Part shown: piece by piece, positions 5,299 through 23,388 of the stretch
Position numbering within the stretch: position 1 is the first letter of the stretch
How the letters are laid out: the number at the start of each line of letters is the position of its first letter
Source of the DNA: Delftia acidovorans NBRC 14950
GTDB taxonomy: Bacteria > Pseudomonadota > Gammaproteobacteria > Burkholderiales > Burkholderiaceae_C
Length of the DNA: 32,000 nucleotides
Assembly: GCF_001598795.1 (NCBI RefSeq)
Contig: NZ_BCZP01000004.1
Coordinates: 90,001-122,000 of the forward strand
Reading direction: 5' to 3'
Translations under genes and position numbers: made by a program
Notes under the pieces: generated by a model
What the model was told of the DNA's origin: nothing
Seen by the model: only the letters and a program-made list of their open reading frames with translations
The model's database searches: none

Positions 5299-5419
5299 GG
5301 ATCGACTCTCCTTGAGGGGGATGGGCAAGGCCCTGCTGCCGGGGCTGCGGCGGGGCCGGAAAAAGGGGCGGGACCGCAGGCTCTGGAGGCCTTCCAGGCG
5401 GTTGCTCACAATGGGTTGC

Positions 5420-5450
5420 ATTCTTCAAGTTCAAGTGAACTTGAAGTCAT
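5420..5450 (-). promoter_or_regulatory. SoxR-box (MerR-type) promoter reading toward the RND efflux operon
   Basis: The minus strand reads ATGACT-(19 nt)-AAGAAT. The spacer contains the palindrome TTCAAGT-nn-ACTTGAA (5430-5445), which is close to the E. coli soxS operator CCTCAAGTTAACTTGAGG. The box starts at position 5 of the -35 hexamer and ends 3 nt before the -10, the same geometry as the soxS promoter. A 19-bp spacer is the MerR-family hallmark. Confidence 0.6.
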
Positions 5451-5717
5451 GATCCGCGCGCAAAGACACCACGAAAATTGAGGACGGTTTGCCGGGGATA
5501 TCGCTGGCCGGATCGGACAAGCGCAGCGGCAATTGACCAGGAACGACCTGAGAAGACCTGGACAGGCGCGCACAGACGGACACACGCGCGTTGCCGCACC
5601 TGCAGGACGCCACCACTACACTGCAAGGCCATCTGACCCAGGGTGGCGGCCAGGTACCGCCAGAAACCGCCGACGAACGCCGACACCCTCCATGGAAAAG
5701 CACTGGATGCCTGCCGC

Positions 5718-8700
5718 ATGAATCTGCTTGCTCACGCCACACTGTCCCGGCCACAGGGACGCAACGAACGCATCAGCACCGTGAGGGTGCTGGCCCTGGA
5801 GATGCCGGGCGGCGACACCACGGCCACCGCAGCGCGCCATGTCGTGACCTTGCAGGTCACGCAATTGAAGGCCGGCGTCGTCGCGCAGGTCGATGACAGC
5901 ACGCTCACCCCCTTGCCCCAGGCGCTGGAGCCTGCACGCCAGCGCGCGCTGGCCTACCTGCGCCAGCGCCTGGGCGCGGGCGATGTGCTGCAGTCCCATG
6001 AGGGCTTTGCGGAGCTGGATGCTGAAGCAGGCCCGGCGCCCTCCCCCGGCCAGGCCCCGGGACAGGCCACGGTGCCGCCAGGCCTGTCGGAGTCGGCCTT
6101 GCAGGCCGGCGCCATTTCCGCCCTGTGCAAACGCCTGGACGGCAGCGCCTGGCGGCTGATGCCCTCGGGCCAGCAGGCCCGGCTGGTGTGGCGGCTGGCC
6201 GAGTATGCGGACCCCGCGCGCGGCGGCGCCGCCCAGCGCCTGCTGCATGCCCAGGTTCCACGCCTGGTGGCGCTGCTGGGCACGGGGGACGATCTGCTCG
6301 ACTACTGCCTGGCCTACCTCATCGGGCGCCTGGGCGATGGCGGCGCGGCGGTGGCCCTGCAGGCGCTCTCGCAACGCGGCACCAGCGAGGCCACGCGCGA
6401 TCTGGCGCACCAGGCCTGGCTGGCCCTGCTGGAGCCGCAGGAACGCCAGGCGGCGCTGCAGGAGTACCAGGCGCAGTGGGCCGGGATCCCCCCGCAGAAA
6501 AACGGCCCGAAAGAGGACGGACCGCAGGCCGAACAGGCCTTCTTCCAGGCACTTGGGCCACAGGCGCTGCTGGCGGCCGATGCGCTGGGCGCGCACGACG
6601 GCGCCATCCACCAGCAGCTGCTGGCCTGGATGGAGCGCATCCCCTTCACGCGCGCCTGGTGGCCGGCCCTGCGGCGCATCCACAAGCGTGCCGAGTGGCG
6701 GCGCGACCACGCCCTGCTGGCCGTGCTGCATGCGCGCTTCGATGGCCCGCGCGACGAGGGTGCCGTCTTCAGCCGCGACACCTCGCTGTACCTGCGCCTG
6801 CGCGGCTGGCGCCAGCTGCGGCGCATGGCCTCGGCCGACCACAGCGAAAGCGCCGCCCATGCCGCAGCCCTGCTCCAGGCCATGGACCGCTGCTGCGCGG
6901 GCCTGCCTGCCTCGCGCTCCGGCCGCCTGCCCGAATCGCGCTGGCTGCTCGCCGCCCGGCTGCTGCTGCCGCGCTGGCCGCAACTGCATGCCTCGGCCCG
7001 CGCCCACACCTGGTACACCGACGAGCCGCTGGACCTGCAGCAGCTGCCCGCGCAGCGCGTGGAAGGACTTTCGGCCATGTGGGACGCCCACCCCGGGCAA
7101 CTGCTGCAACTGGTGGGCCGTTCGCAGTCCACGCTGCTGCTGTGGTCGCTCACGCGCGCCCTGCAGGACCAGAAGGCCTTTCTGGACGGCCTGGATGCAG
7201 CGGCCACCGCGCCGCTGCTGCACAAAACCTATGCACCGGCGGCTGCGCTGGGCCTTCAGATCGCGCAGCAGCGCATGGTCTCGCTGACCGACGATGCGGC
7301 GCGCCGGCCCTGGCTGCTGGCGCTTGCGCAATGCGGCGACGGGCCTGCCGCCAGCTACCTGGGCGCCTGGCTGTCGCGTGACCGCGCAGGCGCCGCGCGC
7401 GATGCCGAACTGGTGGCCGCCCTGCTGCTGTCACCGGCCGCCAGCTCGCGCACCCAGGGCCTGGCCCTGCTGTTTTATGCCGATGGTGCAGCCGTGGCCC
7501 TGGCCTTGCTGGCGGCGCTGCCCACGCTGGACGCCGAAAGCCCCGCGCTGGCCGATATCCGCGATGCGGTGCAGGCGCTGTTCGATGGCAACGGCCCGCT
7601 GGCTGCGCAGGCCGCCAGCGTCCCGGCCCCACCGCTGCACCACCTGCTGGCGCATTCGGTGACGGCGCTGGTGGAGATGGCCACCGCCTGGCTGCTGGCA
7701 CACCCGCAGGGCCTGCGGACCCTGCCGCCGGCGGCGTTGCGCGGGCTGCTGGAATCCGAGGAACCTGCGCGCATGGCCTGCGGCATACGGCTCATGGGCA
7801 GCCTGGCCGATGACCTGCTGTGCGAGCAGGCCGCCATGCTGGCCGAATTCGCCGTATCGCCGCATGCCGCCTTGCGCGCAGCGGCAGCGCCCCTGGTCGA
7901 GCGCCTGGCCGGCACCCCCGTCTACAACACGCGCTGCAACGCCCAGATCGCCGAGCGCCTGCACGAAGTGCTGTTCCGCGCGGAAAAGGCCGAAGGCGTC
8001 CACGACGCGGCGCTGCGGCTGCTCACCGGCCCGCTGGCCGCCGTGGCCCCGGCCCGCGATGCCTCGGGCATCTGGCGCGCCCTGCAGGCTCAGGCCAAGG
8101 GCGCACAGCGCTACGGCGTCTGGGGCCTGAAGGCGCTGGACCTGCAGGTCTACACGCTGCGCCAGTGGTCCACGCTGGCCCGGCATGCCGATGCCGACGT
8201 GCGCGCCTTGAGCCGCCAGAGCATCGATGCGCAGCTCACCCCCATGGACCGGACCCTGCCCGAGCAGGCCGAACAGCTGCTGCCGCTGGCTGACGCCCTG
8301 TTTGCCGACACGCAGCAGTACGCACGCGAGATGTTCGGCCAGCGGCTGCCGGACGGCGCCCTGTCGCCGCAGCTGCTGCTCGGCTGGGTCGATCACGCCC
8401 AGCCCTGGGTGCAGGCCCTGGGCCGCCAGCGGCTCGCGCAGCACATGAGCGCGCCCGAGGCCAGCCTCTTCCTCACGCGCCTGGCCCAGCACCCCGCCAC
8501 CAGCGTGCAGCTGTTCGTCACGCAATGGCTGCTCGCCCTGCCCGACGAGCCCGCGCCGCAGCGCGCGGCGCGCCTGCAGGAGCTGCAGCCCTACTTCCTG
8601 GCCGTGCTCAGCCAGGTGCACCGCGCGCGCGCCAGCAAGACACGCGTGCTGCATTTCCTGCGCAGCCAGGTGCAGGCGCCCGAGACCGCCGCCGTGGTGG

Positions 8701-8861
8701 CAGCCATCTTTGCGCGGCAGGTGGTCAGCGCCAGCCATGCCGACCAGCCCGACTATGTGGCCGGGCTGCGCGACATCGTGCAGCGCCATCCCCAGCTGGC
8801 GCAAAGCTTCATGCAGCCCCTGGCGGCGGAGCGGCGCGGCCAGGCCCCGTCTTCAACCTGA
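5718..8861 (+). CDS. Large Ala/Leu-rich alpha-helical-repeat protein (ARM/HEAT-like by composition); putative retron accessory protein
   Basis: Track ORF 5643..8861(+) is a single uninterrupted 3.2-kb frame with high third-position GC. The antisense ORFs are Arg/Gly-rich junk. The start is uncertain: GTG 5643, ATG 5718 (chosen) or ATG 5802. I recognise no catalytic motif. The repeat-like helical character is inferred from composition only. The gene sits 31 nt upstream of, and co-directional with, the SWIM gene. Confidence 0.6.
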   Translation: MNLLAHATLSRPQGRNERISTVRVLALEMPGGDTTATAARHVVTLQVTQLKAGVVAQVDDSTLTPLPQALEPARQRALAYLRQRLGAGDVLQSHEGFAELDAEAGPAPSPGQAPGQATVPPGLSESALQAGAISALCKRLDGSAWRLMPSGQQARLVWRLAEYADPARGGAAQRLLHAQVPRLVALLGTGDDLLDYCLAYLIGRLGDGGAAVALQALSQRGTSEATRDLAHQAWLALLEPQERQAALQEYQAQWAGIPPQKNGPKEDGPQAEQAFFQALGPQALLAADALGAHDGAIHQQLLAWMERIPFTRAWWPALRRIHKRAEWRRDHALLAVLHARFDGPRDEGAVFSRDTSLYLRLRGWRQLRRMASADHSESAAHAAALLQAMDRCCAGLPASRSGRLPESRWLLAARLLLPRWPQLHASARAHTWYTDEPLDLQQLPAQRVEGLSAMWDAHPGQLLQLVGRSQSTLLLWSLTRALQDQKAFLDGLDAAATAPLLHKTYAPAAALGLQIAQQRMVSLTDDAARRPWLLALAQCGDGPAASYLGAWLSRDRAGAARDAELVAALLLSPAASSRTQGLALLFYADGAAVALALLAALPTLDAESPALADIRDAVQALFDGNGPLAAQAASVPAPPLHHLLAHSVTALVEMATAWLLAHPQGLRTLPPAALRGLLESEEPARMACGIRLMGSLADDLLCEQAAMLAEFAVSPHAALRAAAAPLVERLAGTPVYNTRCNAQIAERLHEVLFRAEKAEGVHDAALRLLTGPLAAVAPARDASGIWRALQAQAKGAQRYGVWGLKALDLQVYTLRQWSTLARHADADVRALSRQSIDAQLTPMDRTLPEQAEQLLPLADALFADTQQYAREMFGQRLPDGALSPQLLLGWVDHAQPWVQALGRQRLAQHMSAPEASLFLTRLAQHPATSVQLFVTQWLLALPDEPAPQRAARLQELQPYFLAVLSQVHRARASKTRVLHFLRSQVQAPETAAVVAAIFARQVVSASHADQPDYVAGLRDIVQRHPQLAQSFMQPLAAERRGQAPSST

Positions 8862-8892
8862 GCGCCGCAACAAGGCACGGAGTCGATCGGAC

Positions 8893-10620
8893 ATGGAATT
8901 TCGCTATCAGTACTACGGCAGCACGCAGGTCAACGACACGGCGGCCGAGCAGGCCTTCTCCTTCGCGCCCGACCTGCTGCGCCCACCCACACGCTTCGAC
9001 GGCCTGCTCCGGCGCGACGGCCCGGCCTACCTGCAGGTGCGCGAAGGGCTGTCCGCGCTGCACAGCGTGGTGGTCAGCGACCTGCGCACGCGCGGCCGCG
9101 ACAAGACGGCCTACCGCGAATGGCTGCAGGAGCACGAAGCGCAAATGCTCGCCACCTTCATGGCCGACACCGGCGGCGCCCAGGCGCGCGCCAAGGAAAT
9201 CAGCGCCGAACTCAAGAACCTGCGCGAGACCCGCAACCAAGTGCTCTCCCCCTTCTACAAGGCCCAGCGCAAGTACTTCGACTGGCTGTTCGTGGCCAAC
9301 CGCGATGCGTGGTATGTGCTCGACCCCGTGATCACCGTGCACCCGGACCGGCTGCTGTTCGAGGCCTTCAGCCAGGACGAATCGAGCTACTGCGCGGTCA
9401 GCATCCGGCACGAGGCCTTCGAGCATGCGGGCGAGCGCATCTGCGGCACCACCAACATCGATTACTCGGCCAGCCTCTACGAAGAATTCCAGAAGATCCG
9501 CAACTACCGGGACACGCGGCTGACGCTGGACCCGGCCGGCTTTGCCGTGCAGGTGGGCGGTGACCCCGCGCTGCGCGAGGAAAAGATCGACCTGCCCGAC
9601 AGCTGGCTGCGCGGCTTCGTGCAGGTCTCCAGCGCCATGGCCCTGCCCGCCACCGTGCTGGAGCTGCACCCCATGGACCTGTTCAACATCTGCGCGCGGC
9701 TGCGTGCCCGGCGCGAGCGCCACGGCCCGCGCGCGCTGCGCTTCGAGCTGGCGCCGGGACAGCCGCCCGCCGTGGTGTTCGAGCCCTGGGAGGAGCTCCT
9801 GGCCACCCGGCGCTCGCACGTCGTCAGCGATGCCATGGGCACGGGCGGCGGCACCATCCGCCTGTGGGGGCGCCGCCGCCTGCTCACGCTGGAGCGGCTG
9901 ATCTCCCAGGCCACGCGCGTGCGCGTGCACCTGCTGGGCAGCGGCATGCCCAGCTTCTGGGTGATCGAGCTGGGACTGGTCACGGTCACGCTGGGCCTGT
10001 CTGGCTGGAGCGCCAACGACTGGGCCGCCAGCGCACGCTTTCACCTGATGGCGCCGCAGGCCGAGGTCACGCCTGCCCAGGTCGAGGCCGTGGGCCGGCA
10101 GCTGCAGTCGTGCTGGCAGGCCGGCGCGCAGGATCTGGCCCAGGCCACGGGCCTGGCCCCGGCCCAGGTGCACACGGCCATGACACGCTGGATGCAGGCC
10201 GGGCGTGCGGTCTACGACCTGGACGCCGGGCGCTACGCCTGGCGCGAACTGCTGCGCGAGCCGCTGACGGCGCAGCAATTGCAGCCCGCCAACCCCGAGG
10301 AGGACAAGGCGCTGGCCCTGGTGCGCGGCAAGGCCATTGCCCCGCCGCGCATCGACCGCAAGGACGGGTTCAGCCGCATCACCGGCCAGATCCCGCGCGC
10401 CGACGGCAAGCGCCTGTTCGACACCCAGCTCGAACTCGATGCCGACGAGCGCCTGACCGATGCGCGCTGCAGCTGCAACCACTACCAGCAGTACCGGCTG
10501 CGCCAGGGGCCCTGCGAGCACATGATTGCGCTGCGCCTGGTGGCGCAGCCCCAGCTCGATGCCGCCCGCCAGCCGACCGGCCCGCAGATGAAGGCCGCAG
10601 GACAAGGAGAAATCGCGTGA
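8893..10620 (+). CDS. SWIM zinc-finger protein (WH-SWIM-like), 575 aa; putative retron accessory protein
   Basis: Part of track ORF 8710..10620(+). The ATG at 8893 (MEFRYQYYGSTQV...) has ACGGAG about 12 nt upstream. The C-terminus ...DARCSCNHYQQYRLRQGPCEHMIALRL matches the SWIM signature CxCxnCxH. Confidence 0.85.
   Translation: MEFRYQYYGSTQVNDTAAEQAFSFAPDLLRPPTRFDGLLRRDGPAYLQVREGLSALHSVVVSDLRTRGRDKTAYREWLQEHEAQMLATFMADTGGAQARAKEISAELKNLRETRNQVLSPFYKAQRKYFDWLFVANRDAWYVLDPVITVHPDRLLFEAFSQDESSYCAVSIRHEAFEHAGERICGTTNIDYSASLYEEFQKIRNYRDTRLTLDPAGFAVQVGGDPALREEKIDLPDSWLRGFVQVSSAMALPATVLELHPMDLFNICARLRARRERHGPRALRFELAPGQPPAVVFEPWEELLATRRSHVVSDAMGTGGGTIRLWGRRRLLTLERLISQATRVRVHLLGSGMPSFWVIELGLVTVTLGLSGWSANDWAASARFHLMAPQAEVTPAQVEAVGRQLQSCWQAGAQDLAQATGLAPAQVHTAMTRWMQAGRAVYDLDAGRYAWRELLREPLTAQQLQPANPEEDKALALVRGKAIAPPRIDRKDGFSRITGQIPRADGKRLFDTQLELDADERLTDARCSCNHYQQYRLRQGPCEHMIALRLVAQPQLDAARQPTGPQMKAAGQGEIA
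10468..10521 (+). other. SWIM zinc-finger motif C526-x-C528-x12-C541-x-H543 within the 8893-10620 CDS
   Basis: Codons TGC 10468, TGC 10474, TGC 10513 and CAC 10519 are in frame with the ATG at 8893. Confidence 0.8.
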
Positions 10621-10649
10621 CCCGCCTCAATTGCTCTACACTGCCACGC

Positions 10650-10876
10650 GGAGCGACGCGCAGGCTCTTGCAATCCGGGTGGTGTTTCGCCACCCTTGTG
10701 AACTGCCGTTTCATGCACCACGGGCGCCGTTTTCACTGTGCCACCCCAGCGACGGTATGCGTTTTCCTGAGTGGCTTGCCACAAGCGAAACACGCATACC
10801 GTCGCGGGGTGGCGTCGAGCGAACAGCTCCCGTCCCGTGAGCCCTGCGGGCTCTTCGACGAGAAGCGCGTCGCTCC
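10650..10876 (+). ncRNA. Putative retron msr-msd non-coding RNA (template/primer for msDNA)
   Basis: GGAGCGACGCGC (10650-10661) is the exact reverse complement of GCGCGTCGCTCC (10865-10876), like retron a1/a2 repeats. Between them are a hairpin at 10677-10695, a long imperfect hairpin at 10741-10812 (7+14+3 bp with two bulges) and a nested hairpin at 10813-10860. The element ends 51 nt before the RT ATG, and no credible ORF lies in the 307-nt spacer. The exact ends and the branching G are not determinable from sequence. Confidence 0.6.
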
Positions 10877-10927
10877 ATTTCTTTGCCCGCCGCACAGCGG
10901 CCGGGCCCGCCTTGCCGGGGTGGCCGC

Positions 10928-12904
10928 ATGAGCCAGCCGCAACCCACACGCGCCGAGATCTACGAGCGCATCAAGGCCTCCAGCAAACAGGAAGTCATCC
11001 TCGACGAGATGCAGCGCCTGGGCTTCTGGCCCAAGGGCGAGGGACAGCCGCAGCTGGCCGCCGCCCACATCCAGCGCGAGGGCGAGCTGCAGCGCGAGCT
11101 GGCCGAGCTGCGCCAGCAGATCGCCGTGCGCCAGAACCCCGAGCGCGCATTGCGCCAGATGCGCAAGGAGCGCATGCAAAAGGCGCTGGCCCAGCGCGAG
11201 GAAACCAAACGCCGCCAGGCCCAGGAGCGCCACGACAAGGCGCTGGCCTGGCATGCGAAGCGGGCCACGCACGTGGGCTATCTGGGCCCCGGCGTCTCCG
11301 CTGCCCTCCAGGGGCCGCAGGCCGGTGAGGCACCGCCTGCTGCCGGGGAACGCCGGCAGGCCGACCCGCAAAGGCTGGCCCGGCATGGCCTGCCGGAACT
11401 TGCCGATGCAGCGCAGCTGGCCGATGCCATGGGCATCACCGTGGCCGAGCTGCGTTTCCTGGGCTTTCACCGCGAGGTGGCCCGCACCCACCACTACCAC
11501 TCGTTCACCCTGCCAAAGAAGACCGGCGGCGAGCGGCTGATCTCCGCGCCCATGCCGCGCCTCAAGCGCGCGCAGTACTGGGTGCTGGACAACATCCTCG
11601 CCAAGGTGCCCGCGCACGATGCCGCGCACGGCTTCCTGGCCGGCCGCTCCATCGTGAGCAATGCCGCGCCGCATGCGGGCCACGACGTGGTCATCAACCT
11701 GGATGTGAAGGACTTCTTTCCCAGCATTGCCTTCGGCCGCATCAAGGGCGTGTTCTGTCATCTGGGCTATGGCGAGGCCATGGCCACCCTCCTGGCCCTG
11801 CTGTGCAGCGAAAACCGCGCCCAGGCCTGGCAGGTGGATGGCGAGAAGCTCTTCGTCGGCGGCAAGGCGCGCGAGCGCGTGCTGCCCCAGGGCGCGCCCA
11901 CCAGCCCCATGCTCACCAACCTGCTGTGCCGCCGCCTGGACCGCCGCCTGCTGGGCCTGGCCAGGCAGCTGGGCTTTGTGTACACGCGCTATGCGGACGA
12001 CCTGACCTTCTCCGCCTCGGGCGAGGCCGCGCGCGACAACGTGGGCCGGCTGCTGGGCCGCGTGCGCTGGATACTGCGCGACGAAGGCTTCACGCCCCAC
12101 CCCGACAAGGAGCGCGTGATGCGCAAGGGCCGCCGCCAGGAGGTCACGGGGCTGGTGGTGAACGCGGACAAGCCCGGCGTATCGCGCGAGACGCGCAGGC
12201 GCCTGCGCGCCGCCCTGCACCGCGCCACGCAGGCCAGCGCCGGCAAGCCGGCGCACTGGCAGGGGCAGGCAGCCCAGCCCTCGCAATTGCTGGGACTGGC
12301 GCAGTTCGTGTACCAGGTCGACCCCGTGCAGGGCGGTCCGCTGCTGGGCCAGGCCCGCCAGCTCACGCGCAGCCCCATCGACCGCGCCAACGATGCCCTG
12401 CTGCAGGCCAGCCGGCAGGACCGCGCGGCGGCGCGTGCGCAGCCGCCCGCAAGCGCACAGTTCCGGCGTCTGGCCGCCAGCGGGCAGGCGCCTGCGCTGG
12501 CCAGCGGCAAGACGTGGTGGCAGCCGGCCGAGCCGGCGGCACCCGTGATCGAGAAGACCGACCAGCAGCGGCGCGAACAGCGGCTGCAAGAGCGCGAGGC
12601 CGCACGCGCCCAGGCAGCTGCGGCCGCACGGCCGGCCGTGGACACGCCGCAGCAGCAGCCCGCACAGGCGCCGAGCCCCGACGCACAGGCACCCGGCCCA
12701 TCGCCGATGCCCGGCCTGCTGACCTACTGGGCGCAGATCGTGATCTGCTTCTTGCTGGGCACGGTGTTCCAGGCGCGCCTGATCACGCTGATCGGCATCG
12801 TGCTGGTCCTGCTCCTGCGCTACCGGCGCATACGGCGCTGGGATGTCTTTGCCGGTGCGATGGTGGTGGCCGTGCTGCTAGGCCTGGGGTTGCGGCTGTC
12901 GTGA
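10928..12904 (+). CDS. Retron-type reverse transcriptase with N-terminal coiled-coil-like extension and C-terminal transmembrane segments, 658 aa
   Basis: Part of track ORF 10883..12904(+), starting at ATG 10928 (MSQPQPTRAEIYERI...). RT motifs: HYHSFTLPKKTGGERLISAP, NAAPH (codons 245-249), NLDVKDFFPSI, LPQGAPTSP, YTRYADDLTF (YADD at 11990-12001) and RQEVTGLVVN (VTG at 12143-12151). NAxxH and VTG are regarded as retron-RT signatures. Confidence 0.88.
   Translation: MSQPQPTRAEIYERIKASSKQEVILDEMQRLGFWPKGEGQPQLAAAHIQREGELQRELAELRQQIAVRQNPERALRQMRKERMQKALAQREETKRRQAQERHDKALAWHAKRATHVGYLGPGVSAALQGPQAGEAPPAAGERRQADPQRLARHGLPELADAAQLADAMGITVAELRFLGFHREVARTHHYHSFTLPKKTGGERLISAPMPRLKRAQYWVLDNILAKVPAHDAAHGFLAGRSIVSNAAPHAGHDVVINLDVKDFFPSIAFGRIKGVFCHLGYGEAMATLLALLCSENRAQAWQVDGEKLFVGGKARERVLPQGAPTSPMLTNLLCRRLDRRLLGLARQLGFVYTRYADDLTFSASGEAARDNVGRLLGRVRWILRDEGFTPHPDKERVMRKGRRQEVTGLVVNADKPGVSRETRRRLRAALHRATQASAGKPAHWQGQAAQPSQLLGLAQFVYQVDPVQGGPLLGQARQLTRSPIDRANDALLQASRQDRAAARAQPPASAQFRRLAASGQAPALASGKTWWQPAEPAAPVIEKTDQQRREQRLQEREAARAQAAAAARPAVDTPQQQPAQAPSPDAQAPGPSPMPGLLTYWAQIVICFLLGTVFQARLITLIGIVLVLLLRYRRIRRWDVFAGAMVVAVLLGLGLRLS
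12725..12901 (+). other. Predicted hydrophobic (2-3 TM) C-terminal tail of the RT
   Basis: The C-terminal sequence is YWAQIVICFLLGTVFQARLITLIGIVLVLLLRYRRIRRWDVFAGAMVVAVLLGLGLRLS. It has three hydrophobic stretches separated by Arg-rich loops, and follows a Pro/Ala/Gln-rich low-complexity linker. Confidence 0.6.
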
Positions 12905-12909
12905 TGTTC

Positions 12910-12944
12910 GCGGGGCCGCAGGCCTCAGAGGCCTGCGGCCCCGC
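12910..12944. terminator. Bidirectional GC-rich hairpin between the convergent RT and AraC genes
   Basis: GCGGGGCCGCAGGCC (12910-12924), a TCAGA loop, then GGCCTGCGGCCCCGC (12930-12944) form a perfect 15-bp stem. It starts 6 nt after the RT stop and overlaps the last codons and stop of the AraC gene. There is no clear U-tract. Confidence 0.55.
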
Positions 12945-13758
12945 CCGCCACGGGTGCACTGCGCAGCGCCAGGAAGCGGCGCGGCGAGGTGCCCACCGCC
13001 TTGCGGAACATGGTCACGAAGGCGGGTGCGCTCTCGTAGCCCAGGGCATCTGCCACGGTCTGTATGCGCAGCCCCTCGGACAGCTTTTGCAGTGCGGTGA
13101 GCACATGCAGCTGGCGGCGCCACTGGTTGACCGTAAGCCCGGTCTCGGCCAGGAACAGCCGCGTCATGCTGCGCTCGCTCATGCCGATGCGCTGGGCCCA
13201 GTCGGCCAGCCGTGCCTGCAGCTGCGGCTGCTCGCACAGGGCGTTGGTCATGCGGCGCAGGCGCCGGTCGTGCGGCAGGGGCAGGTGCAGTCCTTCGGGC
13301 TGCGCCGCCTGGATCTCGTCGAGCAGCACCTGCATGAGCCGGCCATCGCCGCTGTCGGGCTCGTAGTCCTGCGGCAGACCCTGCACGCGGTCCAGCAGCG
13401 CACTGAGAAAGGGCGAGACGGCCAGCGCATGGCAGGGTCCGGGCACGGGGCGCACGGCCCCTGCCTCGACAAAGACCACGTAGCCGCTGGCCGCACCGCT
13501 GCAGCTGACCCGGTGCAGCGTGCCGCCCGGAATCCAGGCGGCGCTGCGCGGCGGCACCACGCAGACGCCCGCATCGGTCTCCAGCGTGATCAGCCCCGCA
13601 TGGGTGACCATGAGCTGGCTCTTGCGGTGGGCATGGAAGTTCATCCCCCAGTCGCCGGGGCCCGACCGCATGGGCAGGACGATCACGGGACGGTCCACAT
13701 GGTCGGGGTCCCACCTCTCGGGCAGGACTTTGAGCAGGGCTGAATCCACGGCATTCAT
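12925..13758 (-). CDS. AraC-family transcriptional regulator (N-terminal cupin-like sensor, C-terminal HTH), 277 aa
   Basis: Track ORF 12925..13758(-). The C-terminal region ...LADWAQRIGMSERSMTRLFLAETGLTVNQWRRQLHVLTALQKLSEGLRIQTVADALGYESAPAFVTMFRKAVGTSPRRF is a canonical AraC double HTH. Confidence 0.9.
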   Translation of the reverse strand: MNAVDSALLKVLPERWDPDHVDRPVIVLPMRSGPGDWGMNFHAHRKSQLMVTHAGLITLETDAGVCVVPPRSAAWIPGGTLHRVSCSGAASGYVVFVEAGAVRPVPGPCHALAVSPFLSALLDRVQGLPQDYEPDSGDGRLMQVLLDEIQAAQPEGLHLPLPHDRRLRRMTNALCEQPQLQARLADWAQRIGMSERSMTRLFLAETGLTVNQWRRQLHVLTALQKLSEGLRIQTVADALGYESAPAFVTMFRKAVGTSPRRFLALRSAPVAGGAAGL

Positions 13759-14173: not shown

Positions 14174-14346
14174 GGAAACCTCCGGCCGATGCCATTCAAT
14201 ACAAATGAGACCCATTACTGTATGAATGAACGGCAGCTGCGTCATTGCAGCACTCAGCCAAAGAATTTCGCAGTCCGGCCAGGACGCTCGCATGGGCGGT
14301 ACAGACCCGGTTGCCCTGTTCCTGCGCTTTCGCTCAGAATGGCCGC

Positions 14347-14377
14347 ATTCTTCGAGTTCAAGTGAACTTGAAGTCAA
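14347..14377 (-). promoter_or_regulatory. SoxR-box (MerR-type) promoter reading toward orf127-araC, divergent from soxR
   Basis: The minus strand reads TTGACT-(19 nt)-AAGAAT with the palindrome TTCAAGT-nn-ACTTGAA at 14357-14372. It is nearly identical to the module at 5420-5450 and ends 20 nt upstream of the soxR ATG. Confidence 0.6.
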
Positions 14378-14396
14378 GCCACAAAGGAAAGCCACC

Positions 14397-14900
14397 ATGA
14401 AAACCGAGGATGATCCACTGCTCAGCATCGGCGACGTGGCGCAGCGCAGCGGGGTCAAGGCCTCGGCGCTGCGCTTTTACGAGTCGCTGAACCTGATCGA
14501 GTCCGTGCGCAGCGCCAGCGGCCACCGGCGCTACCACCGCTCGTCGCTGCGGCGCATCGCCTTCGTGGTGTTCGCCCAGCGCATCGGCTTCACGCTGGAG
14601 GAGATCGCCGAGCAGCTGGCCAAGCTGCCCAGCCGACATGTCCCCACGGGCGGGGACTGGCAGAAGATGTCGCGGGTCTGGAAGCAGCGGCTGGACGACC
14701 GCATAGGCGAGCTGCAGCGGCTCAGCGAGAGCCTGGACCAGTGCATTGGCTGCGGTTGCCTGTCGCTGCGCCACTGCGTGCTGCACAACCCCGGCGACCT
14801 GTGCGCACAGAACGGCCCGGGGCCGCGCCGCTGGCTGGGCGACCCGCCGCCCGTGGCCATGGGCGGGCCCTGCCCGGGCCACTGCCACGACGAAGGCTGA
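14397..14900 (+). CDS. soxR: Redox-sensitive transcriptional activator SoxR (MerR family, [2Fe-2S])
   Basis: Part of track ORF 14226..14900(+), starting at ATG 14397 after AAAGGAAAG. The MerR HTH is LSIGDVAQRSGVKASALRFYESLNLI. The SoxR cluster motif CIGCGCLSLRHC (CX2CXCX5C) is present. Confidence 0.9.
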   Translation: MKTEDDPLLSIGDVAQRSGVKASALRFYESLNLIESVRSASGHRRYHRSSLRRIAFVVFAQRIGFTLEEIAEQLAKLPSRHVPTGGDWQKMSRVWKQRLDDRIGELQRLSESLDQCIGCGCLSLRHCVLHNPGDLCAQNGPGPRRWLGDPPPVAMGGPCPGHCHDEG

Positions 14901-15722
14901 TCAGGACACGCGCCGTGTCGTGACGAAGTCCAGCACCGCCTGCAGCATGCGCTGCAGCGTGGGCTGGATCTGTTCGGCGCGCTCGGGCAGGTAGTCGAAG
15001 GGCAGCGCTTCCTGCATGTAGCTGCACTGCGTCATCTCCAGCTGCACGGCGTGGATGCCGGCCTCGGGCTGGCCGTAGTGGCGCGTGATGTAGCCGCCTG
15101 TGAAGCGGCCGTTGAGTATGGCGGTGTGGCCCGGCGCGGTCTGCGCAATGGCCAGCAGATGCTCGGCCAGCTCCAGCGCGCAGCTCGTGCCCTTGCCGGT
15201 GCCCAGGTTCAGGTCGGGCAGCTTGCCTTCGAAGAAACGCGGCAGCACCGAGCGGATGGAGTGCGCGTCCCACAGCGCCACGGTGCCGTGCACGGCCTTG
15301 AGGCGGTCCAGCTCGGCGCGCAGCTGTGCGTGGTACGGGCCCCAGATGGCCTCGCGGCGCGCGGCGATTTCGGCGTCCGCGGGCACATCGGCCGGGTCGG
15401 CGTACAGCGGCGTGTCGTCGAAGGTGTCCACGGGGCACAGGCCGGTGACGCTCTGGCCCGGGTAGAGGCTGGCGCCATCGGGCGGACGGTTCAGGTCCAC
15501 CACATAGCGCGAATGCGTGGCCACCAGGATGGAGGCGCCCATGGCCTTGGCGAACTCGTACAGGCGCGGCAGGTGCCAGTCGGTGTCGGGCACGTGGCGG
15601 GCTTCCTCGGTCAGGCGCGCGGCGATGTCGGGCGGCACATGGGTGCCCGCATGCGGCATGGAGATCAGCAGCGGCGCCGTGCCCTGGTGGAAGACGAAGG
15701 GAGGGGGAGCGGTATCGGTCAT
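14901..15722 (-). CDS. hutG: N-formylglutamate amidohydrolase (deformylase)
   Basis: Part of track ORF 14901..16067(-), starting at ATG 15722 (MTDTAPPPFVFHQGTAPLLISMPHAGTHVP...DTDWH...LWDAHSIRS...LPDLNLGT...GGYITRHYG). It closely resembles Pseudomonas HutG (FGase family). Confidence 0.9.
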   Translation of the reverse strand: MTDTAPPPFVFHQGTAPLLISMPHAGTHVPPDIAARLTEEARHVPDTDWHLPRLYEFAKAMGASILVATHSRYVVDLNRPPDGASLYPGQSVTGLCPVDTFDDTPLYADPADVPADAEIAARREAIWGPYHAQLRAELDRLKAVHGTVALWDAHSIRSVLPRFFEGKLPDLNLGTGKGTSCALELAEHLLAIAQTAPGHTAILNGRFTGGYITRHYGQPEAGIHAVQLEMTQCSYMQEALPFDYLPERAEQIQPTLQRMLQAVLDFVTTRRVS

Positions 15723-15778
15723 GGTGTGATTCTGGAACGTTTCTGGCGGGTTTTGCGGGCCCATGGCTTGCGGGGGCC

Positions 15779-17179
15779 TCAGGATTGCAGGGTGGCCGCG
15801 CGGGCCGCGACAAAGCCATGGGCTGCCGCCTCGTGCAGCGCATGGCGGCCGGCCTGCACGCGGCGCTCGCCGCCCACCCACAGGCTGTGCAGGGCGCTGC
15901 TGCGGTGGCTGCCGAAGACATGGGCCGAGACCATGGCCTGCACCGGCAGGCCGGCCAGCGCCACATGGTTTGCGTCCAGCGCCAGGAAGTCGGCCTGCTG
16001 GCCCACGGCCAGCCCGGCCACGGGGCGGCCTGCGGCCTGGGCGCCGCCCTGCACGGCGGCGGTCCACAGCGCGGTGCCCACCTGCGGGTCGGGGCCTGCC
16101 AGCACGTTGCGCTGGCGCAGCGACAGGCGCTGGCTATATTCGAGCATCAGCAGTTCCTCGGCAGCGTTGACGCAGGCATGGCTGTCCGAGCCCACGCCCC
16201 AGGCGCCGCCTTGGCCCAGCCATTGCGGCATGTCGAAGATGCCATCGCCCAGGTTGGCCTCGGTGGTGGGGCAGATGCCGGCCACGGCGCCGCTGCGCGC
16301 GGCGCCCGCGTATTCACCGGGCGTCATGTGGGTGGCGTGGACCAGGCACCAGCGCGCGTCCACGGGGGCATGCTCCAGCAGCCATTGCACGGGGCGCTGG
16401 CCGCTCCAGGCCAGGCAGTCGTCCACCTCCTGGGTCTGCTCGGCAATGTGGATGTGGATGGGCGCGCGCGCATCCAGCGCCGTCAGGCCCTCCACGGCCA
16501 CGCGCAGGCTGTCGGGCGGCACGGCGCGCAGCGAGTGCGGCGCCAGGCCCAGGGCCGCGCCCTGGGCACGGGCCTCGGGCAGCAGGCGCTGCAGCAAGGC
16601 CAGCATGTTGTCCGTGCTGCGGATGAAGCGCGCCTGGTCGGCGCGCGGCGGCTTGCCGCCGAAGCCGCTGGTCTGGTAGAGCACGGGCAGCAGGGTGATG
16701 CCCATGCCGGCCTTGCGCGCGGCGCGCAGCAGGGCCAGGGACAGCGTGGCGTCGTCGGCATAGGGCCGGCCATCCCGGTCGTGGTGCACGTAGTGGAATT
16801 CGCAGACCGAGGTGTAGCCGGCCTCCAGCATCTCCACGTACAGCCAGGTGGCGATGGCCTCCAGCGACTCGGGCGTGATGCGCGCGGCAAAGCGGTACAT
16901 GAGGTCGCGCCAGCTCCAGAAGCTGTCCTGGGCCTCGGCGCGGTATTCGGTCAGGCCCGCAAAGGCGCGCTGGAAGGCATGCGAGTGCAGGTTGGGCATG
17001 CCGGGCAGCACGGGGCCGGGCGCGCGCGGCGCGCTGCCCGGCTGTGCGTCGGCCTGTACGGCCTGCAGGCTTCCTGTGCCATCCCAGCGCAGCAGCACAT
17101 TGCGCGCCCAGCCCGTGGGCAGCAGCGCGTGCTCGGCGAACAGCGTGCGGCTGTCGGAAGTCTGGTCGATGCCGCTCAT
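15779..17179 (-). CDS. hutF: Formimidoylglutamate deiminase
   Basis: Part of track ORF 15779..18097(-), starting at ATG 17179 (MSGIDQ...LFAEHALLPTGWARNV...LPGMPNLHSHAFQRAFAGL...HIHIAEQTQEVDDCLAWSGQRPVQWL...GICPTTEANLGDGIF). It is co-linear with Pseudomonas HutF. The ATGA overlaps the upstream gene. Confidence 0.92.
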   Translation of the reverse strand: MSGIDQTSDSRTLFAEHALLPTGWARNVLLRWDGTGSLQAVQADAQPGSAPRAPGPVLPGMPNLHSHAFQRAFAGLTEYRAEAQDSFWSWRDLMYRFAARITPESLEAIATWLYVEMLEAGYTSVCEFHYVHHDRDGRPYADDATLSLALLRAARKAGMGITLLPVLYQTSGFGGKPPRADQARFIRSTDNMLALLQRLLPEARAQGAALGLAPHSLRAVPPDSLRVAVEGLTALDARAPIHIHIAEQTQEVDDCLAWSGQRPVQWLLEHAPVDARWCLVHATHMTPGEYAGAARSGAVAGICPTTEANLGDGIFDMPQWLGQGGAWGVGSDSHACVNAAEELLMLEYSQRLSLRQRNVLAGPDPQVGTALWTAAVQGGAQAAGRPVAGLAVGQQADFLALDANHVALAGLPVQAMVSAHVFGSHRSSALHSLWVGGERRVQAGRHALHEAAAHGFVAARAATLQS

Positions 17180-18321
17180 TGTCCGGCCTCCAGGATGTCG
17201 GCCAGCGCGCGCACGAAGCGTTCGTTGTCGGCCTCGGTGCCCACGGAGACGCGGATGAAGTGCTCGAAGCCGGGCTCCTTCCATGGCTTGGTGATGATGC
17301 CCCGGGCCAGCAGCGCCTCGTTCACGGGGCCGTTGGGACGGCCGATGTCGATGAACAGGAAGTTGGCGGCCGAAGGCGCTATCCGAAGCGCAGGCAGTGC
17401 AGGCAGGGCGGCCAGCCGCTGCGCCAGCACATCGCGCAGGCGCACGGTCTCGGCCACGCCGCGCTGCATGAAGTCCTCGTCGCCCCAGGCCGCCAGCGCC
17501 GCCGCCTGGGCGGCCTGGTTGACGTTGAAGGGCGTGCGCACGCGGTCCAGCAGTTGCACCAGGGCCGCGTCGCTGGCCAGTCCGTAGCCCACGCGCAGGC
17601 CCGCCAGGCCCCAGGCCTTGGAGAAGGTGCGCAGCACGATCCAGGGCATGGCGCGGCCGCGCAGCAGGGCCAGCACGTCGGGGTAGTCGTCGGCGTGCAG
17701 GGCGTACTCGTAGTAGGCCTCGTCCACCACCAGCAGGGTCTGCGGCGGCGTGGCGTCCAGCAGGCGCGCGAAATCGCCGGCGCTGAACATGCAGCCCACG
17801 GGATTGGAGGGATTGGCCAGCATGGCGATCTTGGGGCCGCGCGCCAGCGCCTGGCACCAGGCATCGACGTCGAAGCCCAGCGCGGGCGTAAGCTCCAGCA
17901 GCTCGACGCGGGCGCCCATCATGCGCGGGTAGATCTCGTGCAGGCCGAAGGCCGGGCGCTGGGTGAGCACGCGGTCGCCGGGCGAGAGAAACGCCTGGCA
18001 GAGCATCTGCAGGATGTCCTCGGAGCCGTTGCCCACGGCAATGGCCTCGGCCGGCACGCCGGTGCGCGCCGCGATGGCCGCGCGCAGCGCCGTGCATTGC
18101 GCATCGGGATAGGTGCCCACGTGCAGGGCCAGGTCGGCCAGGGCGCGGGCCACGGCAGGGCTGGCGCCAAAGGGGTTCTCGTTGCTCGCCAGCCGCGCGA
18201 TCTCGGTGACGCCGTAGCGCGCCCGCACGGCCTCGGAGGACAGGCCTGCGTTGTAGGGCGGCAGCGGCGGCACTTCGGGGCGTGCCAGGGTGTGGATCGC
18301 GTGGATGGCGGGAGCGTTCAT
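17176..18321 (-). CDS. Histidinol-phosphate-aminotransferase-family PLP enzyme (HisC-like), 381 aa
   Basis: Part of track ORF 17176..19530(-), starting at ATG 18321 (MNAPAIH...). Motifs are LASNENPFGASP, NPSNPVG and LRTFSKAWGLAGLRVGY (PLP lysine). ATGA start/stop overlaps occur at both ends (18318-18321 and 17176-17179). Confidence 0.88.
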   Translation of the reverse strand: MNAPAIHAIHTLARPEVPPLPPYNAGLSSEAVRARYGVTEIARLASNENPFGASPAVARALADLALHVGTYPDAQCTALRAAIAARTGVPAEAIAVGNGSEDILQMLCQAFLSPGDRVLTQRPAFGLHEIYPRMMGARVELLELTPALGFDVDAWCQALARGPKIAMLANPSNPVGCMFSAGDFARLLDATPPQTLLVVDEAYYEYALHADDYPDVLALLRGRAMPWIVLRTFSKAWGLAGLRVGYGLASDAALVQLLDRVRTPFNVNQAAQAAALAAWGDEDFMQRGVAETVRLRDVLAQRLAALPALPALRIAPSAANFLFIDIGRPNGPVNEALLARGIITKPWKEPGFEHFIRVSVGTEADNERFVRALADILEAGQ

Positions 18322-19706
18322 AGGTCGAATACCTTGCCGGGGTTGAACAGATGCAGGGGGTCCAGCGCCTGCTTGATGGCGCGCATCACGGCCAGTTCGG
18401 CCGGCGTGCGGCTGGCGCCGAGATAGGGCTTCTTGTGCAGGCCGATGCCGTGCTCGGCCGAGACGCTGCCGCCGAACTCGCCGACCAGGTGGTACAGCGC
18501 GGCCTCGACGCCTTCGCAGTCGCCGTTGGCGGTGGCACCGTCCACCGAGACATGCAGGTTGCCGTCGCCCACATGGCCGAAGAACAGCGAGTGGTGGCCG
18601 GGCCAGCGCGCGTCGAACGCGGCGCGGCAGGCATCGGCGAAGCGGCCGATGTCGGCCTGGGGCAGGCTGACGTCGAAGTTGACGGGCGGATGCATGTTCG
18701 TGTTGAGCTCGGCCGGCGCCTCGCGCAGCTTCCACAGCTGGCGCGCCTGGGCCACGGACTGGGCGATGACGGCATCGGCCACCTCGCCGGCCTCCATGGC
18801 CTCGCCCAGGGCCTCTTCCACGTCGGCGCGCAGCGTGGCCTCGTCCTTGCCGTCCACATCGATCAGGGCCAGCAGCGCATGCGCCTGGCCAAAGGGCGGC
18901 TGCAGCTTCTGCCAGCGGATGGAGGCCTGGATGAAGCTGTCCCACATCAGCTCGAAGGCCGCCACGCCGTTGCCAAAGCGCGATTGCATGCGCGCGAGCA
19001 CGGACAGCGCCGCATCGAAGTCCGGCACGGCCACCAGGGCCGTGGCGCGGGCCTGGGGCGCGGGACGCAGGCGCAGCAGCACGCGCGTGACGATGCCCAG
19101 CGTGCCCTCCGAGCCGATGAAGAACTGCTTGAGGTCGTAGCCCGTGTTGTTCTTGAGCATGGGGCGCAGCATGGGCAGCACCGTGCCGTCGGCCAGCACC
19201 ACCTCCAGGCCCAGCACCTGCTCGCGCATCATGCCGTGCTGCAGCACGCCGTTGCCGCCCGCATTGGTGGCCACGTTGCCGCCGATCTGGCAACTGCCGC
19301 GCGCGCCCAGGTCCACGCCGAAGACCATGCCTGCGGCCACGGCCGCCTCCTGCACGGCCTGCAGCGTGGCGCCGGCCTGCACGGTCATCAGCGCGGTGCG
19401 CGCGTTCACGTCCTCGATGGCGTTCATTCGCTCCATGGAGACGGCCACGGCACCCGGCACGGGCACGGCCGCACCGGCCAGGCCCGTGAGCCCGCCCTGG
19501 GGCACGACAGGCACGCGGTGGGCCGTGCACAGGCGCATGAGCGCGCTGACCTCGTCGGTGCTGCGCGGGCGCACCAGGGCCAGCGGGCGCTGGGGCGGCG
19601 TGCCGCTCCAGTCGGTGTGGTAGCGCGCGGGCACATCGTCGCCGCGCTGCGCCACTTCGGCGCCCAGGGTGGAAATCAATTCATCGAGAAACAGTGCATG
19701 GGACAT
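18318..19706 (-). CDS. FAD-linked oxidase / D-2-hydroxyacid dehydrogenase family protein (GlcD-like), 462 aa
   Basis: Part of track ORF 18318..19817(-), starting at ATG 19706 (MSHALFLDELISTLG...). It has an FAD_binding_4-type segment (LALVRPRSTDEVSALMRLCTAHRVPVVPQGGLTGLAGAAVP) and a C-terminal FAD-oxidase_C-like segment (SAEHGIGLHKKPYL). Confidence 0.82.
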   Translation of the reverse strand: MSHALFLDELISTLGAEVAQRGDDVPARYHTDWSGTPPQRPLALVRPRSTDEVSALMRLCTAHRVPVVPQGGLTGLAGAAVPVPGAVAVSMERMNAIEDVNARTALMTVQAGATLQAVQEAAVAAGMVFGVDLGARGSCQIGGNVATNAGGNGVLQHGMMREQVLGLEVVLADGTVLPMLRPMLKNNTGYDLKQFFIGSEGTLGIVTRVLLRLRPAPQARATALVAVPDFDAALSVLARMQSRFGNGVAAFELMWDSFIQASIRWQKLQPPFGQAHALLALIDVDGKDEATLRADVEEALGEAMEAGEVADAVIAQSVAQARQLWKLREAPAELNTNMHPPVNFDVSLPQADIGRFADACRAAFDARWPGHHSLFFGHVGDGNLHVSVDGATANGDCEGVEAALYHLVGEFGGSVSAEHGIGLHKKPYLGASRTPAELAVMRAIKQALDPLHLFNPGKVFDL

Positions 19707-19716
19707 GAGCAGGCTT

Positions 19717-21003
19717 TCAGTGGCTCCCCTGCCCGCAGCGGGTCCGCACGATGCGGCCCTGGCGCACGATGGTGCAGTCCGGCCGGTTGCCGAACCAGTA
19801 GGCCAGCTCGGCCGCATGGCGCACGGGCCAGAGCACGAAGTGGGCAGGACGGCCGGCCGCGATCAGGCCATGCTCGTCCTGCAGGCCCAGGGCGCGCGCG
19901 GCATGGCGGGTGATGCCCGCCAGGGCCTCGGGCACGGTGAGCCGGAACAGGGTGCAGGCCATGTTGGCCATGAGCAAAAGGCTCAGGCAGGGGGAGGTGC
20001 CCGGATTGTGATCGGTAGAGACGGCCATGGGAACGCCCGCGGCGCGCAGGCCAGCGATGGGCGGCATGTGGGTGTCGCGCAGCGTGTAGTAGGCGCCGGG
20101 CAGCAGCACGGCCACGGAACCCGCGCCGCGCATGGCGGCAATGCCGGATTCGGACAGGTGCTCGATGTGGTCGCACGACAGCGCGCCATAGCGGGCCGCG
20201 AGGGCCGCCCCCTCCATGTTCGACAGCTGCTCGGCATGCAGCTTGACGGACAGGCCCAGGCGGCGTGCGGCCTGGAAGACCTGCTCGGTCTCGGCCAGCG
20301 AGAAGGCAATGCGCTCGCAGAACACATCGACCGCATCGACCAGGCCCTCGGCCGCCAGCGCGGGCAGCATGGTGCCGGCGACGAGGTCGATGTAGTCCTG
20401 GCTGCGCCCTGCGTACTCGGGCGGCAGCGCATGCGCGCCCAGGAAGGTGGTGCGCACGGTCACGCCCAGGGCCTGGCCCAGGCGCCGGGCCACGCGCAGC
20501 TGCTTGCGCTCGTGCTCCAGCGCCAGGCCGTAGCCCGACTTGATCTCGATGGCGCAGACGCCCTCGTCCAGCAGCTGCTGCAGGCGCGGCAGGGCCTGGG
20601 CGAACAGCTCGTCCTCGCTGGCCTCGCGCGTGGCACGCACGCTGGAGACGATGCCGCCGCCGGCGCGGGCCACTTCCTCGTAGCTGGCGCCGTCCAGGCG
20701 CATGGCGAATTCGTTGGCGCGCTCGCCGCCATAGACCAGGTGGGTGTGGCAATCGACCAGGCCCGGCGTGGCCAGCATGCCCTGGCCGTCATGGCGCGGC
20801 AGGGACGCATATGCGGGCGGCAGGGCCTGCTGCGGCCCCACCCAGGCCACGCGGCCCTGCTGCACCACGATGCAGGCATCCTCCCCGTCACCCACGGCCT
20901 GGCCGGCCTCGAACATGTCAGGCGCCAGGCGCAGGTTCTGCCAGCAGCCGTCGGCCGAAGAGGATGGAGCGAGTGCGGAAGCGGGTGCGTGGGGCTCGGT
21001 CAT
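19717..21003 (-). CDS. hutI: Imidazolonepropionase
   Basis: Part of track ORF 19717..21153(-), starting at ATG 21003. Motifs are [31 protein letters not shown] and [10 protein letters not shown], typical of HutI amidohydrolases. Confidence 0.93.
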
Positions 21004-21031
21004 GGGTGGATTCCTTGGATGTCGTGGGTCG

Positions 21032-21592: not shown

Positions 21593-21615
21593 TGCCGTGG
21601 TGTCCTGCAAGCGGC

Positions 21616-23349
<1,734 letters not shown>

Positions 23350-23388
23350 GGCGATCTCCTGGATGCGGGGGGTGAGCGGTTGCGGGGT

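Follow-up and report, generated by a model that had tools for sequence, protein, structure and literature searches.

Two accessory genes of a type XIII retron in Delftia acidovorans: a WGR/HEAT protein and a SWIM-finger protein with a predicted clamp-like module

Introduction

What might a protein of more than a thousand residues, rich in alanine and leucine, be doing next to a SWIM-finger protein and upstream of a reverse transcriptase (RT) in a Delftia chromosome? The two genes in question fill positions 5718-10620 of a 32,000-nt stretch of Delftia acidovorans NBRC 14950 (contig NZ_BCZP01000004.1, 90,001-122,000), here called the window, and an original prediction made from the DNA alone took them for a candidate sensor/effector pair in a retron context. 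We conclude that they are almost certainly the accessory genes of a canonical type XIII retron, situated on the chromosome of a Delftia-like betaproteobacterium. The pair is thus already known, since Mestre et al. (2020; PMC7736814, cited here and below for parts of its text) described just such an accessory pair for this type.

The Delftia locus is therefore no new kind of system; what it offers is a clean, complete and selectively maintained type XIII example in a culturable genus. The first elements of multicopy single-stranded DNA (msDNA) ever found, Mx162 and Mx65, belong to this same type. In a recent metagenome survey, type XIII ranks third of 28 retron groups with 143 candidates, among the commonest and taxonomically broadest.

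Identity of the cassette

All three proteins encoded here match the PADLOC type XIII models, which derive from the classification of Mestre et al. (PMC7736814), essentially end to end. The large protein matches WGR_XIII (PDLC02973) with E 9.4e-216 and 717.4 bits over profile positions 1-966 of 973, the SWIM protein matches SWIM_XIII (PDLC02972) with E 1.5e-202 and 671.8 bits over positions 1-504 of 509, and the downstream open reading frame (ORF) matches RT_XIII at 583 bits (E 1.2e-175), where the runner-up RT model reaches 329. In the operon the WGR/HEAT gene comes first, then the SWIM gene, the msr-msd RNA and the RT gene, with the following features (AF2, AlphaFold2 model; dN/dS, ratio of nonsynonymous to synonymous substitution rates):

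5718..8861 (+): large accessory protein, WGR-like plus HEAT/ARM (Mestre cluster 216 type); PADLOC WGR_XIII, AF2, Foldseek, dN/dS
5718..6005 (+): WGR-like domain, residues 1-96, signature degenerate; AF2 secondary structure, Pfam matches of orthologues
6096..8810 (+): HEAT/ARM-like alpha-solenoid, residues 127-1031, about 50 helices; AF2, Foldseek, HEAT_2 in orthologues
8893..10620 (+): SWIM accessory protein (Mestre cluster 114_1 type); PADLOC SWIM_XIII, conservation among orthologues
8920..10002 (+): predicted two-domain sliding-clamp-like module, residues ~10-370; AF2, Foldseek
10072..10242 (+): winged helix-turn-helix, residues 394-450; AF2, weak profile matches
10417..10533 (+): SWIM zinc finger CxCx12CxH; Pfam PF04434, motif
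10650..10876 (+): msr-msd non-coding RNA; inverted repeat, fold z-score, covariation
10928..12904 (+): retron reverse transcriptase, 658 aa; PADLOC RT_XIII, Pfam RVT_1, motifs

In the scheme of Mestre et al., type XIII combines a clade-10 RT with a "primary" protein (cluster 114_1) that contains the motif Dx7[D]x4Ex30-32Dx37E, a winged helix resembling that of DprA and, at its C-terminus, a SWIM finger of the form CxCx12CxH; this protein is usually preceded by a WGR-like/HEAT-ARM protein of the cluster 216 type, and Mx162, Mx65, Sa163 and Ne144 are given as members (PMC7736814). Each of these elements is present in the window: an RT of the right lineage and motifs, a SWIM protein with the DEDE motif and winged helix, a WGR/HEAT partner and an msr-msd RNA. 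The RT itself runs from ATG 10928 to 12904 (+) and comprises 658 aa, with an N-terminal extension, a Pfam RVT_1 match and the motifs NAAPH245, YADD355 and VTG406. Its closest solved relative in a PDB sequence search is the RT of Ec86 (E 1.6e-42), and Ec67 is found at E 1.4e-32.

The two accessory genes

The window is about 70% G+C, and many frames carry long ORFs on that account. The open frames containing the two genes nevertheless show a codon-position pattern: G+C at the first, second and third positions is 0.79/0.52/0.88 for 5637-8861 (+) and 0.67/0.56/0.89 for 8449-10620 (+). Together with dN/dS values of 0.19-0.31 for both accessory genes, computed against Delftia and Comamonas orthologues, this pattern marks both as real genes rather than chance ORFs of high-GC DNA. 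Antisense ORFs overlapping both genes lack it, and we reject them as high-GC artefacts. Purifying selection is seen on all three genes, those for the large protein, the SWIM protein and the RT, and at these values no gene-wide positive selection is seen on the large gene.

The large gene extends from ATG 5718 to 8861 (+), 3144 nt encoding 1047 aa, and the PADLOC profile match begins at the same ATG. The SWIM gene extends from ATG 8893 (MEFRYQYY) to 10620 (+), encoding 575 aa, with a GGAG 11-14 nt upstream. With 19.0% Ala and 15.6% Leu, the product of the 3.1-kb ORF is as Ala- and Leu-rich as first described, and the two helix-like peptides then singled out lie at residues 658 and 708. It had also been called nearly Lys-free; the measured 1.1% Lys agrees, but neighbouring proteins contain 0.4-3.3%, and low Lys is therefore a genome-wide effect of the 70% G+C and no special trait of this protein. 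A sigma-70 promoter scan of 5300-13100 returned zero sites, and terminator-like matches there were uninformative.

Linkage across phyla

An alignment of the SWIM family, scanned against one genome per species, gave at least 555 loci, the best 80 of which (L001-L080) were kept. They span at least six phyla, with Burkholderiales, Alphaproteobacteria, Gammaproteobacteria, Cyanobacteria, Bacteroidota, Myxococcota and Acidobacteriota among the groups represented, along with others. The large protein lies upstream on the same strand in 72 of the 80, and an RT of the type XIII kind is present in 65, directly downstream on the same strand in 53. Absence of an RT can be assessed only where the full 10-kb flanks are available on both sides; eight RT-less loci have truncated flanks, and of the 72 loci that either carry an RT or have full flanks, 7, mostly cyanobacterial, lack one.

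The RNA is at least as faithful a companion. In 60 of the 80 loci the SWIM gene is followed by a conserved msr motif, CTTGCA-N4-G-N3-GG-N-G-N2-TCGCC, which adjoins it also in loci whose RT lies 2-8 kb away; at L026, L038, L060, L062, L071 and L079 the motif stands beside the SWIM gene and no RT was found in the flanking DNA examined. The link between SWIM protein and RNA is thus at least as tight as that between SWIM protein and RT. The retron association proposed at the outset holds, given this linkage and the end-to-end profile matches; the finding that would have counted against it, namely that homologues of the pair rarely neighbour an RT, is not what the loci show.

These counts also bear on a different account of the pair, in which it is an independent yeh/MolR-like module that merely sits beside a retron. 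The comparison with the Escherichia coli yeh/molR-type clusters goes back to the original prediction. The cluster does exist: E. coli K-12 carries yehF (WGR), yehI (DUF4132, 1210 aa), yehL (MoxR), yehP (VWA) and yehQ (SWIM), with no RT, and the shared architectural theme is genuine, as are the 7 of 72 assessable SWIM loci with no RT within 10 kb. Homology, however, is undetected, as hhalign of both families against YehQ, YehI and YehF gives probabilities of 1.2%, 0.2% and 0.2%, respectively; Pfam finds no DUF4132 match in the large protein; and the MoxR and VWA partners are missing at the window locus. Membership in the yeh/MolR group is rejected on these grounds. The linkage data contradict the independent-module account as well, with the RT in 65 of 80 loci and the msr RNA after the SWIM gene in 60, several of these being loci where no RT was found, and we regard it as scarcely credible.

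The msr-msd RNA

Between the SWIM stop at 10620 and the RT start at 10928 lies an element of 227 nt (10650-10876, +) that we identify as a retron msr-msd RNA from its predicted folding and covariation. It is bounded by a perfect 12-nt inverted repeat, GGAGCGACGCGC (a1, 10650-10661) and its complement (a2, 10865-10876), and folds at -129.9 kcal/mol, with z = -8.3 relative to shuffled sequences. Within it are a conserved msr hairpin (10677-10695) and a long msd stem-loop of 114 nt (10720-10833), and the branching G is probably at 10663-10664. Similar a1/a2 repeats of 9-16 nt, specific to each lineage and spanning about 210-245 nt, occur at the same place in most loci with an adjacent RT, and homologous RNAs are present in the myxobacterial loci L037 and L073.

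The fold is supported by covariation. In an alignment of 20 loci from several phyla, compensatory changes occur in 36 of 53 pairs, and 93.6% of cells are paired as against 35-44% when the partners are slid; the covariation score is 0.547 versus about 0.1 in controls, and none of 500 shuffles reaches the observed values. No retron family came up in Rfam, where a scan of the entire window at E <= 1 gave a chance miRNA-like match and nothing else.

At its base the msd stem hardly changes in sequence from one phylum to another, CACTGG...TCTTCACTG being paired with CGAGTGGA...CCAGT (alignment columns 96-113 and 195-210), whereas its distal part is free to vary and shows compensatory changes. The difference suggests a protein-recognition site at the base.

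The large WGR/HEAT protein

The AF2 model of the large protein has a predicted local distance difference test score (pLDDT) of 88 and a predicted template modelling score (pTM) of 0.65. Residues 2-95 form a beta-beta-beta-beta-alpha-beta unit (strands 2-13, 16-26, 41-51 and 54-62, helix 70-86, strand 90-95), and residues 127-1031 an unbroken all-alpha solenoid. Foldseek matches are to SF3B1, CAND1, transportins/karyopherins and PP2A-A, with E from 1e-7 to 1e-5, all of them generic HEAT scaffolds, and the model thus bears out the ARM/HEAT solenoid that had been read from composition. Repeats are not seen at the level of sequence; the "repeat" character would reside in degenerate HEAT-like helix pairs of the predicted structure. 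Neither structure nor profile searches place the protein in a well-known housekeeping family, an assignment that the original prediction had named as fatal to its proposal, and a PDB sequence search found no solved relative.

The window copy itself has zero Pfam or NCBIfam matches even at E <= 10. A word-indexed homologue search gave only 34 hits because of the protein's composition, and orthologues were drawn from the related loci instead. Among 42 orthologous N-termini so obtained, 28 match Pfam WGR (PF05406; best E 4.7e-10), and Pfam HEAT_2 is found in 28 of the 42 orthologues. Since the orthologues match although the window copy, which has lost the WGR signature residues, does not, the window protein can be said to carry a divergent WGR domain.

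This is also the fastest-evolving component of the cassette: its identity across phyla is 22-30%, while the SWIM protein retains 45-50% and the RT 44-52%. Such graded conservation fits a conserved core joined to a variable sensor. On a shorter timescale, between Delftia species (5530-6513 against L001), the 5' part of the large gene shows about 86% DNA identity with unaligned patches, and the flanks 93-97.5%; despite this diverged 5' part, gene-wide dN/dS is only 0.31.

The SWIM protein

The SWIM finger was correctly recognised at the outset as bona fide, down to its ligands. The motif CSCNHYQQYRLRQGPCEH supplies C526, C528, C541 and H543, the match of residues 509-547 to Pfam SWIM (PF04434) scores 24.1 bits (E 2.5e-5) where the cut-off is 19.6 bits, and the four zinc ligands are invariant in 81 orthologues, the set over which invariant residues and column identities were scored. 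Of all parts of the cassette this protein is the best conserved, being 45-50% identical to its orthologues in other phyla, and 91 of its residues are invariant. The basic ones among them include R30, R50, R203, R240, R280, R283, R307, R323, R327, R329 and R335; the acidic ones include D144, E157, D162, E163, D190, E198, E229, D262 and E275; and H150 is invariant as well.

The AF2 model of the protein (pLDDT 81.5, pTM 0.81) gives 437 Foldseek matches in the PDB at E <= 1e-3. Each of the best 50, which were inspected, is PCNA or another sliding clamp, with E values from 4e-8, a probability of 1.0, about 250-285 aligned columns and target-normalised template modelling (TM) scores of 0.50-0.63 for single-copy chains. 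Among the best 50 matches listed for BFVD, a database of predicted viral structures, the named ones are PCNA, DnaN and herpesvirus processivity factors. Domain limits were taken from the secondary-structure string of the model. Residues 254-369 run beta-alpha-beta-beta-beta twice, an order that fits one clamp domain exactly, and residues ~10-215 make a second, less regular clamp-like domain with an inserted helical hairpin at 72-135. Several of the invariant arginines sit in helices that would line the inner face of such a clamp. Beyond the module come a winged helix at 394-450, with three helices and a two-strand wing, and a beta-rich C-terminal domain that carries the SWIM finger. The winged helix has weak profile matches to TFE and KdgR (E 0.1-0.2), in agreement with the DprA-like winged helix described in the cited text of PMC7736814.

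The inserted hairpin (window 9106-9297) has a column identity of 0.42-0.44, the lowest in the module. The family has roughly 1660 representative members, and many of 470-510 aa appear to do without the hairpin, as query residue ~140 aligns to their own residue ~70.

No counterpart of this resemblance is found in sequence: Pfam PCNA_N/C and DNA_pol3_beta give zero matches even at E <= 10, hhalign of the family with E. coli DnaN returns a probability of 0.08%, and a PDB sequence search found no solved relative. The predicted fold nonetheless argues for a role in holding DNA or msDNA, and against descent from a domesticated transposase. The suggestion that the SWIM protein binds msDNA, already present in the original prediction, is plausible on this model, given the clamp-like fold combined with winged helix and SWIM finger and a gene that stays beside the msr-msd RNA.

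A domesticated transposase is, however, what has been proposed for this family. In that account the SWIM protein would be a nuclease effector, its metal-dependent DEDE site coming from a Mutator/IS256-like transposase; once freed from the RT-msDNA complex it would cut DNA, and the HEAT protein would only regulate it (transposase origin of the nuclease: Mestre et al., 2020; PMC7736814). The motif is certainly there: the window protein reads D144-x7-D152-x4-E157-x32-D190-x37-E228, with the neighbouring E229 the invariant one, and the acidic region, which includes the invariant D144, E157, D190 and E229 along with H150, D162, E163, D262 and E275, is the most conserved in the protein, at 0.87-0.89 column identity. 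Yet the structural matches inspected, where named, are to clamps and processivity factors, no RNase H-like transposase or nuclease appears among those listed, and neither the PDB sequence profile search nor Pfam finds a nuclease or transposase. Clamp folds, moreover, are not known to be catalytic. We consider the nuclease account improbable, though not strongly so.

The hydrophobic tail of the reverse transcriptase

Hydropathy reveals a further feature of the Delftia RT. After a low-complexity linker, residues ~596-658 (12713-12901) contain two or three hydrophobic segments resembling membrane helices. Among the RTs of 600-670 aa encoded at type XIII loci of beta- and alphaproteobacteria, most have such a tail, whereas the shorter RTs of this type in cyanobacteria, Bacteroidota and Myxococcota, at 465-520 aa, have none; the tail goes unmentioned in the cited parts of Mestre et al. 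(2020; PMC7736814).

The tail might itself be the effector in Proteobacteria, acting on the membrane in the manner of the type IV 2TM effectors, with the WGR/HEAT and SWIM proteins as sensors or regulators. Its hydrophobic segments and its wide occurrence in the proteobacterial RTs speak for this possibility. The tail-less RTs of the other phyla keep the same pair, though, which excludes the tail as an effector for the type at large; its role may be no more than to attach the complex to the membrane. We find the effector reading of the proteobacterial tail decidedly unlikely.

A proposed mechanism and its difficulties

How, then, might the pair work? By analogy with the characterised retrons Ec86, Ec48 and Sen2, we infer the following mechanism, including every step of binding and activation. 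The RT would copy the msd part of the RNA into branched msDNA of about 150 nt with a long hairpin. The SWIM protein would be the nucleic-acid-binding core, with its clamp-like module lined with invariant Arg, its winged helix and its SWIM finger, and would hold or encircle the duplex stem of the msDNA. The fast-evolving WGR/HEAT protein would serve as a scaffold or sensor coupled to the RT-msDNA particle, offering a large variable surface to phage-derived triggers; Mestre et al. report that the RT and the HEAT protein co-evolve (PMC7736814). Infection would then disturb the msDNA-protein complex and release a growth-arresting activity, for which the candidates are the invariant acidic residues of the SWIM protein and, in the proteobacterial subgroup, the hydrophobic tail of the RT. 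The assignment of sensor and effector roles within the pair is likewise conjectural, and the mechanism as a whole is tentative: possible, though we would not call it probable.

Several observations weigh against it. The searchable literature yielded no experimental msDNA production, phage defence or toxicity for type XIII accessory pairs, and no recognisable toxin domain was found in the cassette proteins. The clamp likeness is a matter of fold only, in a predicted model with TM of about 0.5-0.6 and a root-mean-square deviation of 5-10 A, with no sequence signal. Co-evolution of the RT is reported to be closer with the HEAT protein than with its SWIM partner, and inheritance of type XIII to be vertical and correlated with 16S (cited parts of PMC7736814), which leaves room for a role other than defence. 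The cassette occupies a conserved chromosomal position between efflux and histidine-utilisation (hut) genes, not a defence island, and a search of 2.9 million viral contigs yielded no relatives.

Some of these points belong equally to a reading in which the cassette is domesticated and vertically inherited, its msDNA serves a housekeeping or regulatory role rather than an anti-phage one, and the pair is no immune sensor and effector at all. The same position and flanks recur in D. acidovorans, D. tsuruhatensis and a Comamonas metagenome-assembled genome (MAG), the neighbours are efflux, regulator and histidine-utilisation genes, all three cassette genes are under purifying selection, and the 16S correlation, the absence from viral contigs and the lack of any phage-defence test of type XIII in the searchable literature agree with it too. 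Set against these are the patchy distribution across phyla and the divergence of the HEAT protein, which is much faster than that of its partners and whose 5' part outdiverges the flanks between Delftia species, as is typical of genes in conflict. To our knowledge, every retron type that has been functionally tested acts in phage defence. A housekeeping role strikes us as unlikely.

Returning to the mechanism proposed above, one may go further and suppose that the SWIM protein is a true clamp-fold protein that rings or rides the msDNA hairpin, or a mimic of the host clamp that baits phage replication proteins, and that in Proteobacteria the whole complex is tethered to the membrane through the RT tail. 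We think this extension rather unlikely. If it is true, type XIII works by a DNA-clamp-based surveillance complex, not by an effector derived from a nuclease or transposase; nothing similar to clamp-based retron surveillance was found in the searchable literature. Two leads for first mechanistic work on type XIII emerge here: the predicted clamp-like fold of the SWIM protein, and the membrane-type tail of the proteobacterial RTs.

Chromosomal neighbours and variant loci

The window is collinear, flanks included, with D. acidovorans (96-97% identity), D. tsuruhatensis and the Comamonas MAG. The neighbours of the cassette are an RND pump and MFP efflux pair, AraC and MerR regulators, and hut genes. 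The MerR-family regulator at 14226-14900 gives a PADLOC "mad1" match (E 8e-11) that covers only the helix-turn-helix; a likeness common to MerR proteins, rather than a role in defence, is the most likely explanation. From 14901 to 25860 (-) lie genes for urocanase, histidine ammonia-lyase, an amidohydrolase family protein and a GntR/UTRA regulator, then an ABC transporter; the same hut cluster includes N-formylglutamate amidohydrolase-like and formimidoylglutamate deiminase-like genes, named from their translations alone. All of these are ordinary chromosomal genes.

Some loci elsewhere depart from the standard arrangement. At seven cyanobacterial loci (L029, L035, L042, L052, L072, L074 and L075; for example, L052 13149-15080 and L075 13886-15252) 2-8 kb separate the RT from the SWIM gene and msr motif, and in all seven a gene for RNase III with a double-stranded RNA-binding domain precedes the RT by a short distance; several add a gene for a Swt1-like HEPN-RNase III fusion, an NYN RNase, or both. 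These loci may represent a variant whose accessory proteins target or process RNA. Calothrix parasitica (L043, 2010-11641) has two HEAT proteins, one of 1263 aa and one of 1066 aa with a WGR domain, together with the SWIM protein and no RT within 10 kb. A solitary SWIM gene, without the msr motif, lies between ferritin and transaldolase genes at L056 (10001-11677).

Comparison with known systems

The yehF-yehI-yehLMPQ cluster resembles the pair in theme only, in that both combine a WGR domain with a very large helical protein and a protein bearing a SWIM finger. The finger is N-terminal in YehQ and C-terminal in the window protein, and the yeh cluster has MoxR AAA+ and VWA genes but neither RT nor msr-msd RNA, the reverse of the Delftia locus.

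The likeness to PARP1-3 consists in the Pfam WGR domain at the N-terminus of 28 of 42 large-protein orthologues. The PARP catalytic domain is absent from the large protein, and the window copy is without the signature residues. In PARPs the WGR domain contacts DNA breaks, which by analogy suggests that the large protein may contact nucleic acid.

With sliding clamps such as PCNA, DnaN and the herpesvirus factors, the SWIM protein shares, in its predicted model, a two-domain beta-alpha-beta-beta-beta fold with invariant Arg in its helices. It differs from them in having no detected sequence similarity, a helical-hairpin insertion, a fused winged helix and SWIM finger, and invariant acidic residues, and no clamp loader is encoded nearby.

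The characterised retrons Ec86/Eco1 (NDT effector), Ec48 (2TM) and Ec78 (PtuAB) stand closer, each with an RT, an msr-msd RNA and one or more co-transcribed accessory proteins; the RT of the window is homologous, as its matches to Ec86 and Ec67 show. Those accessory proteins are unrelated to the Delftia pair, in which no recognised toxin, ATPase or nuclease domain was found, and the architecture of the non-coding RNA is specific to type XIII (cited parts of PMC7736814). Closest of all are the type XIII retrons themselves, from which the window locus has no essential difference, gene content and order being identical. Its peculiarities are the degenerate WGR signature of the large protein and the hydrophobic C-terminal tail of the RT, the latter common to other Proteobacteria.

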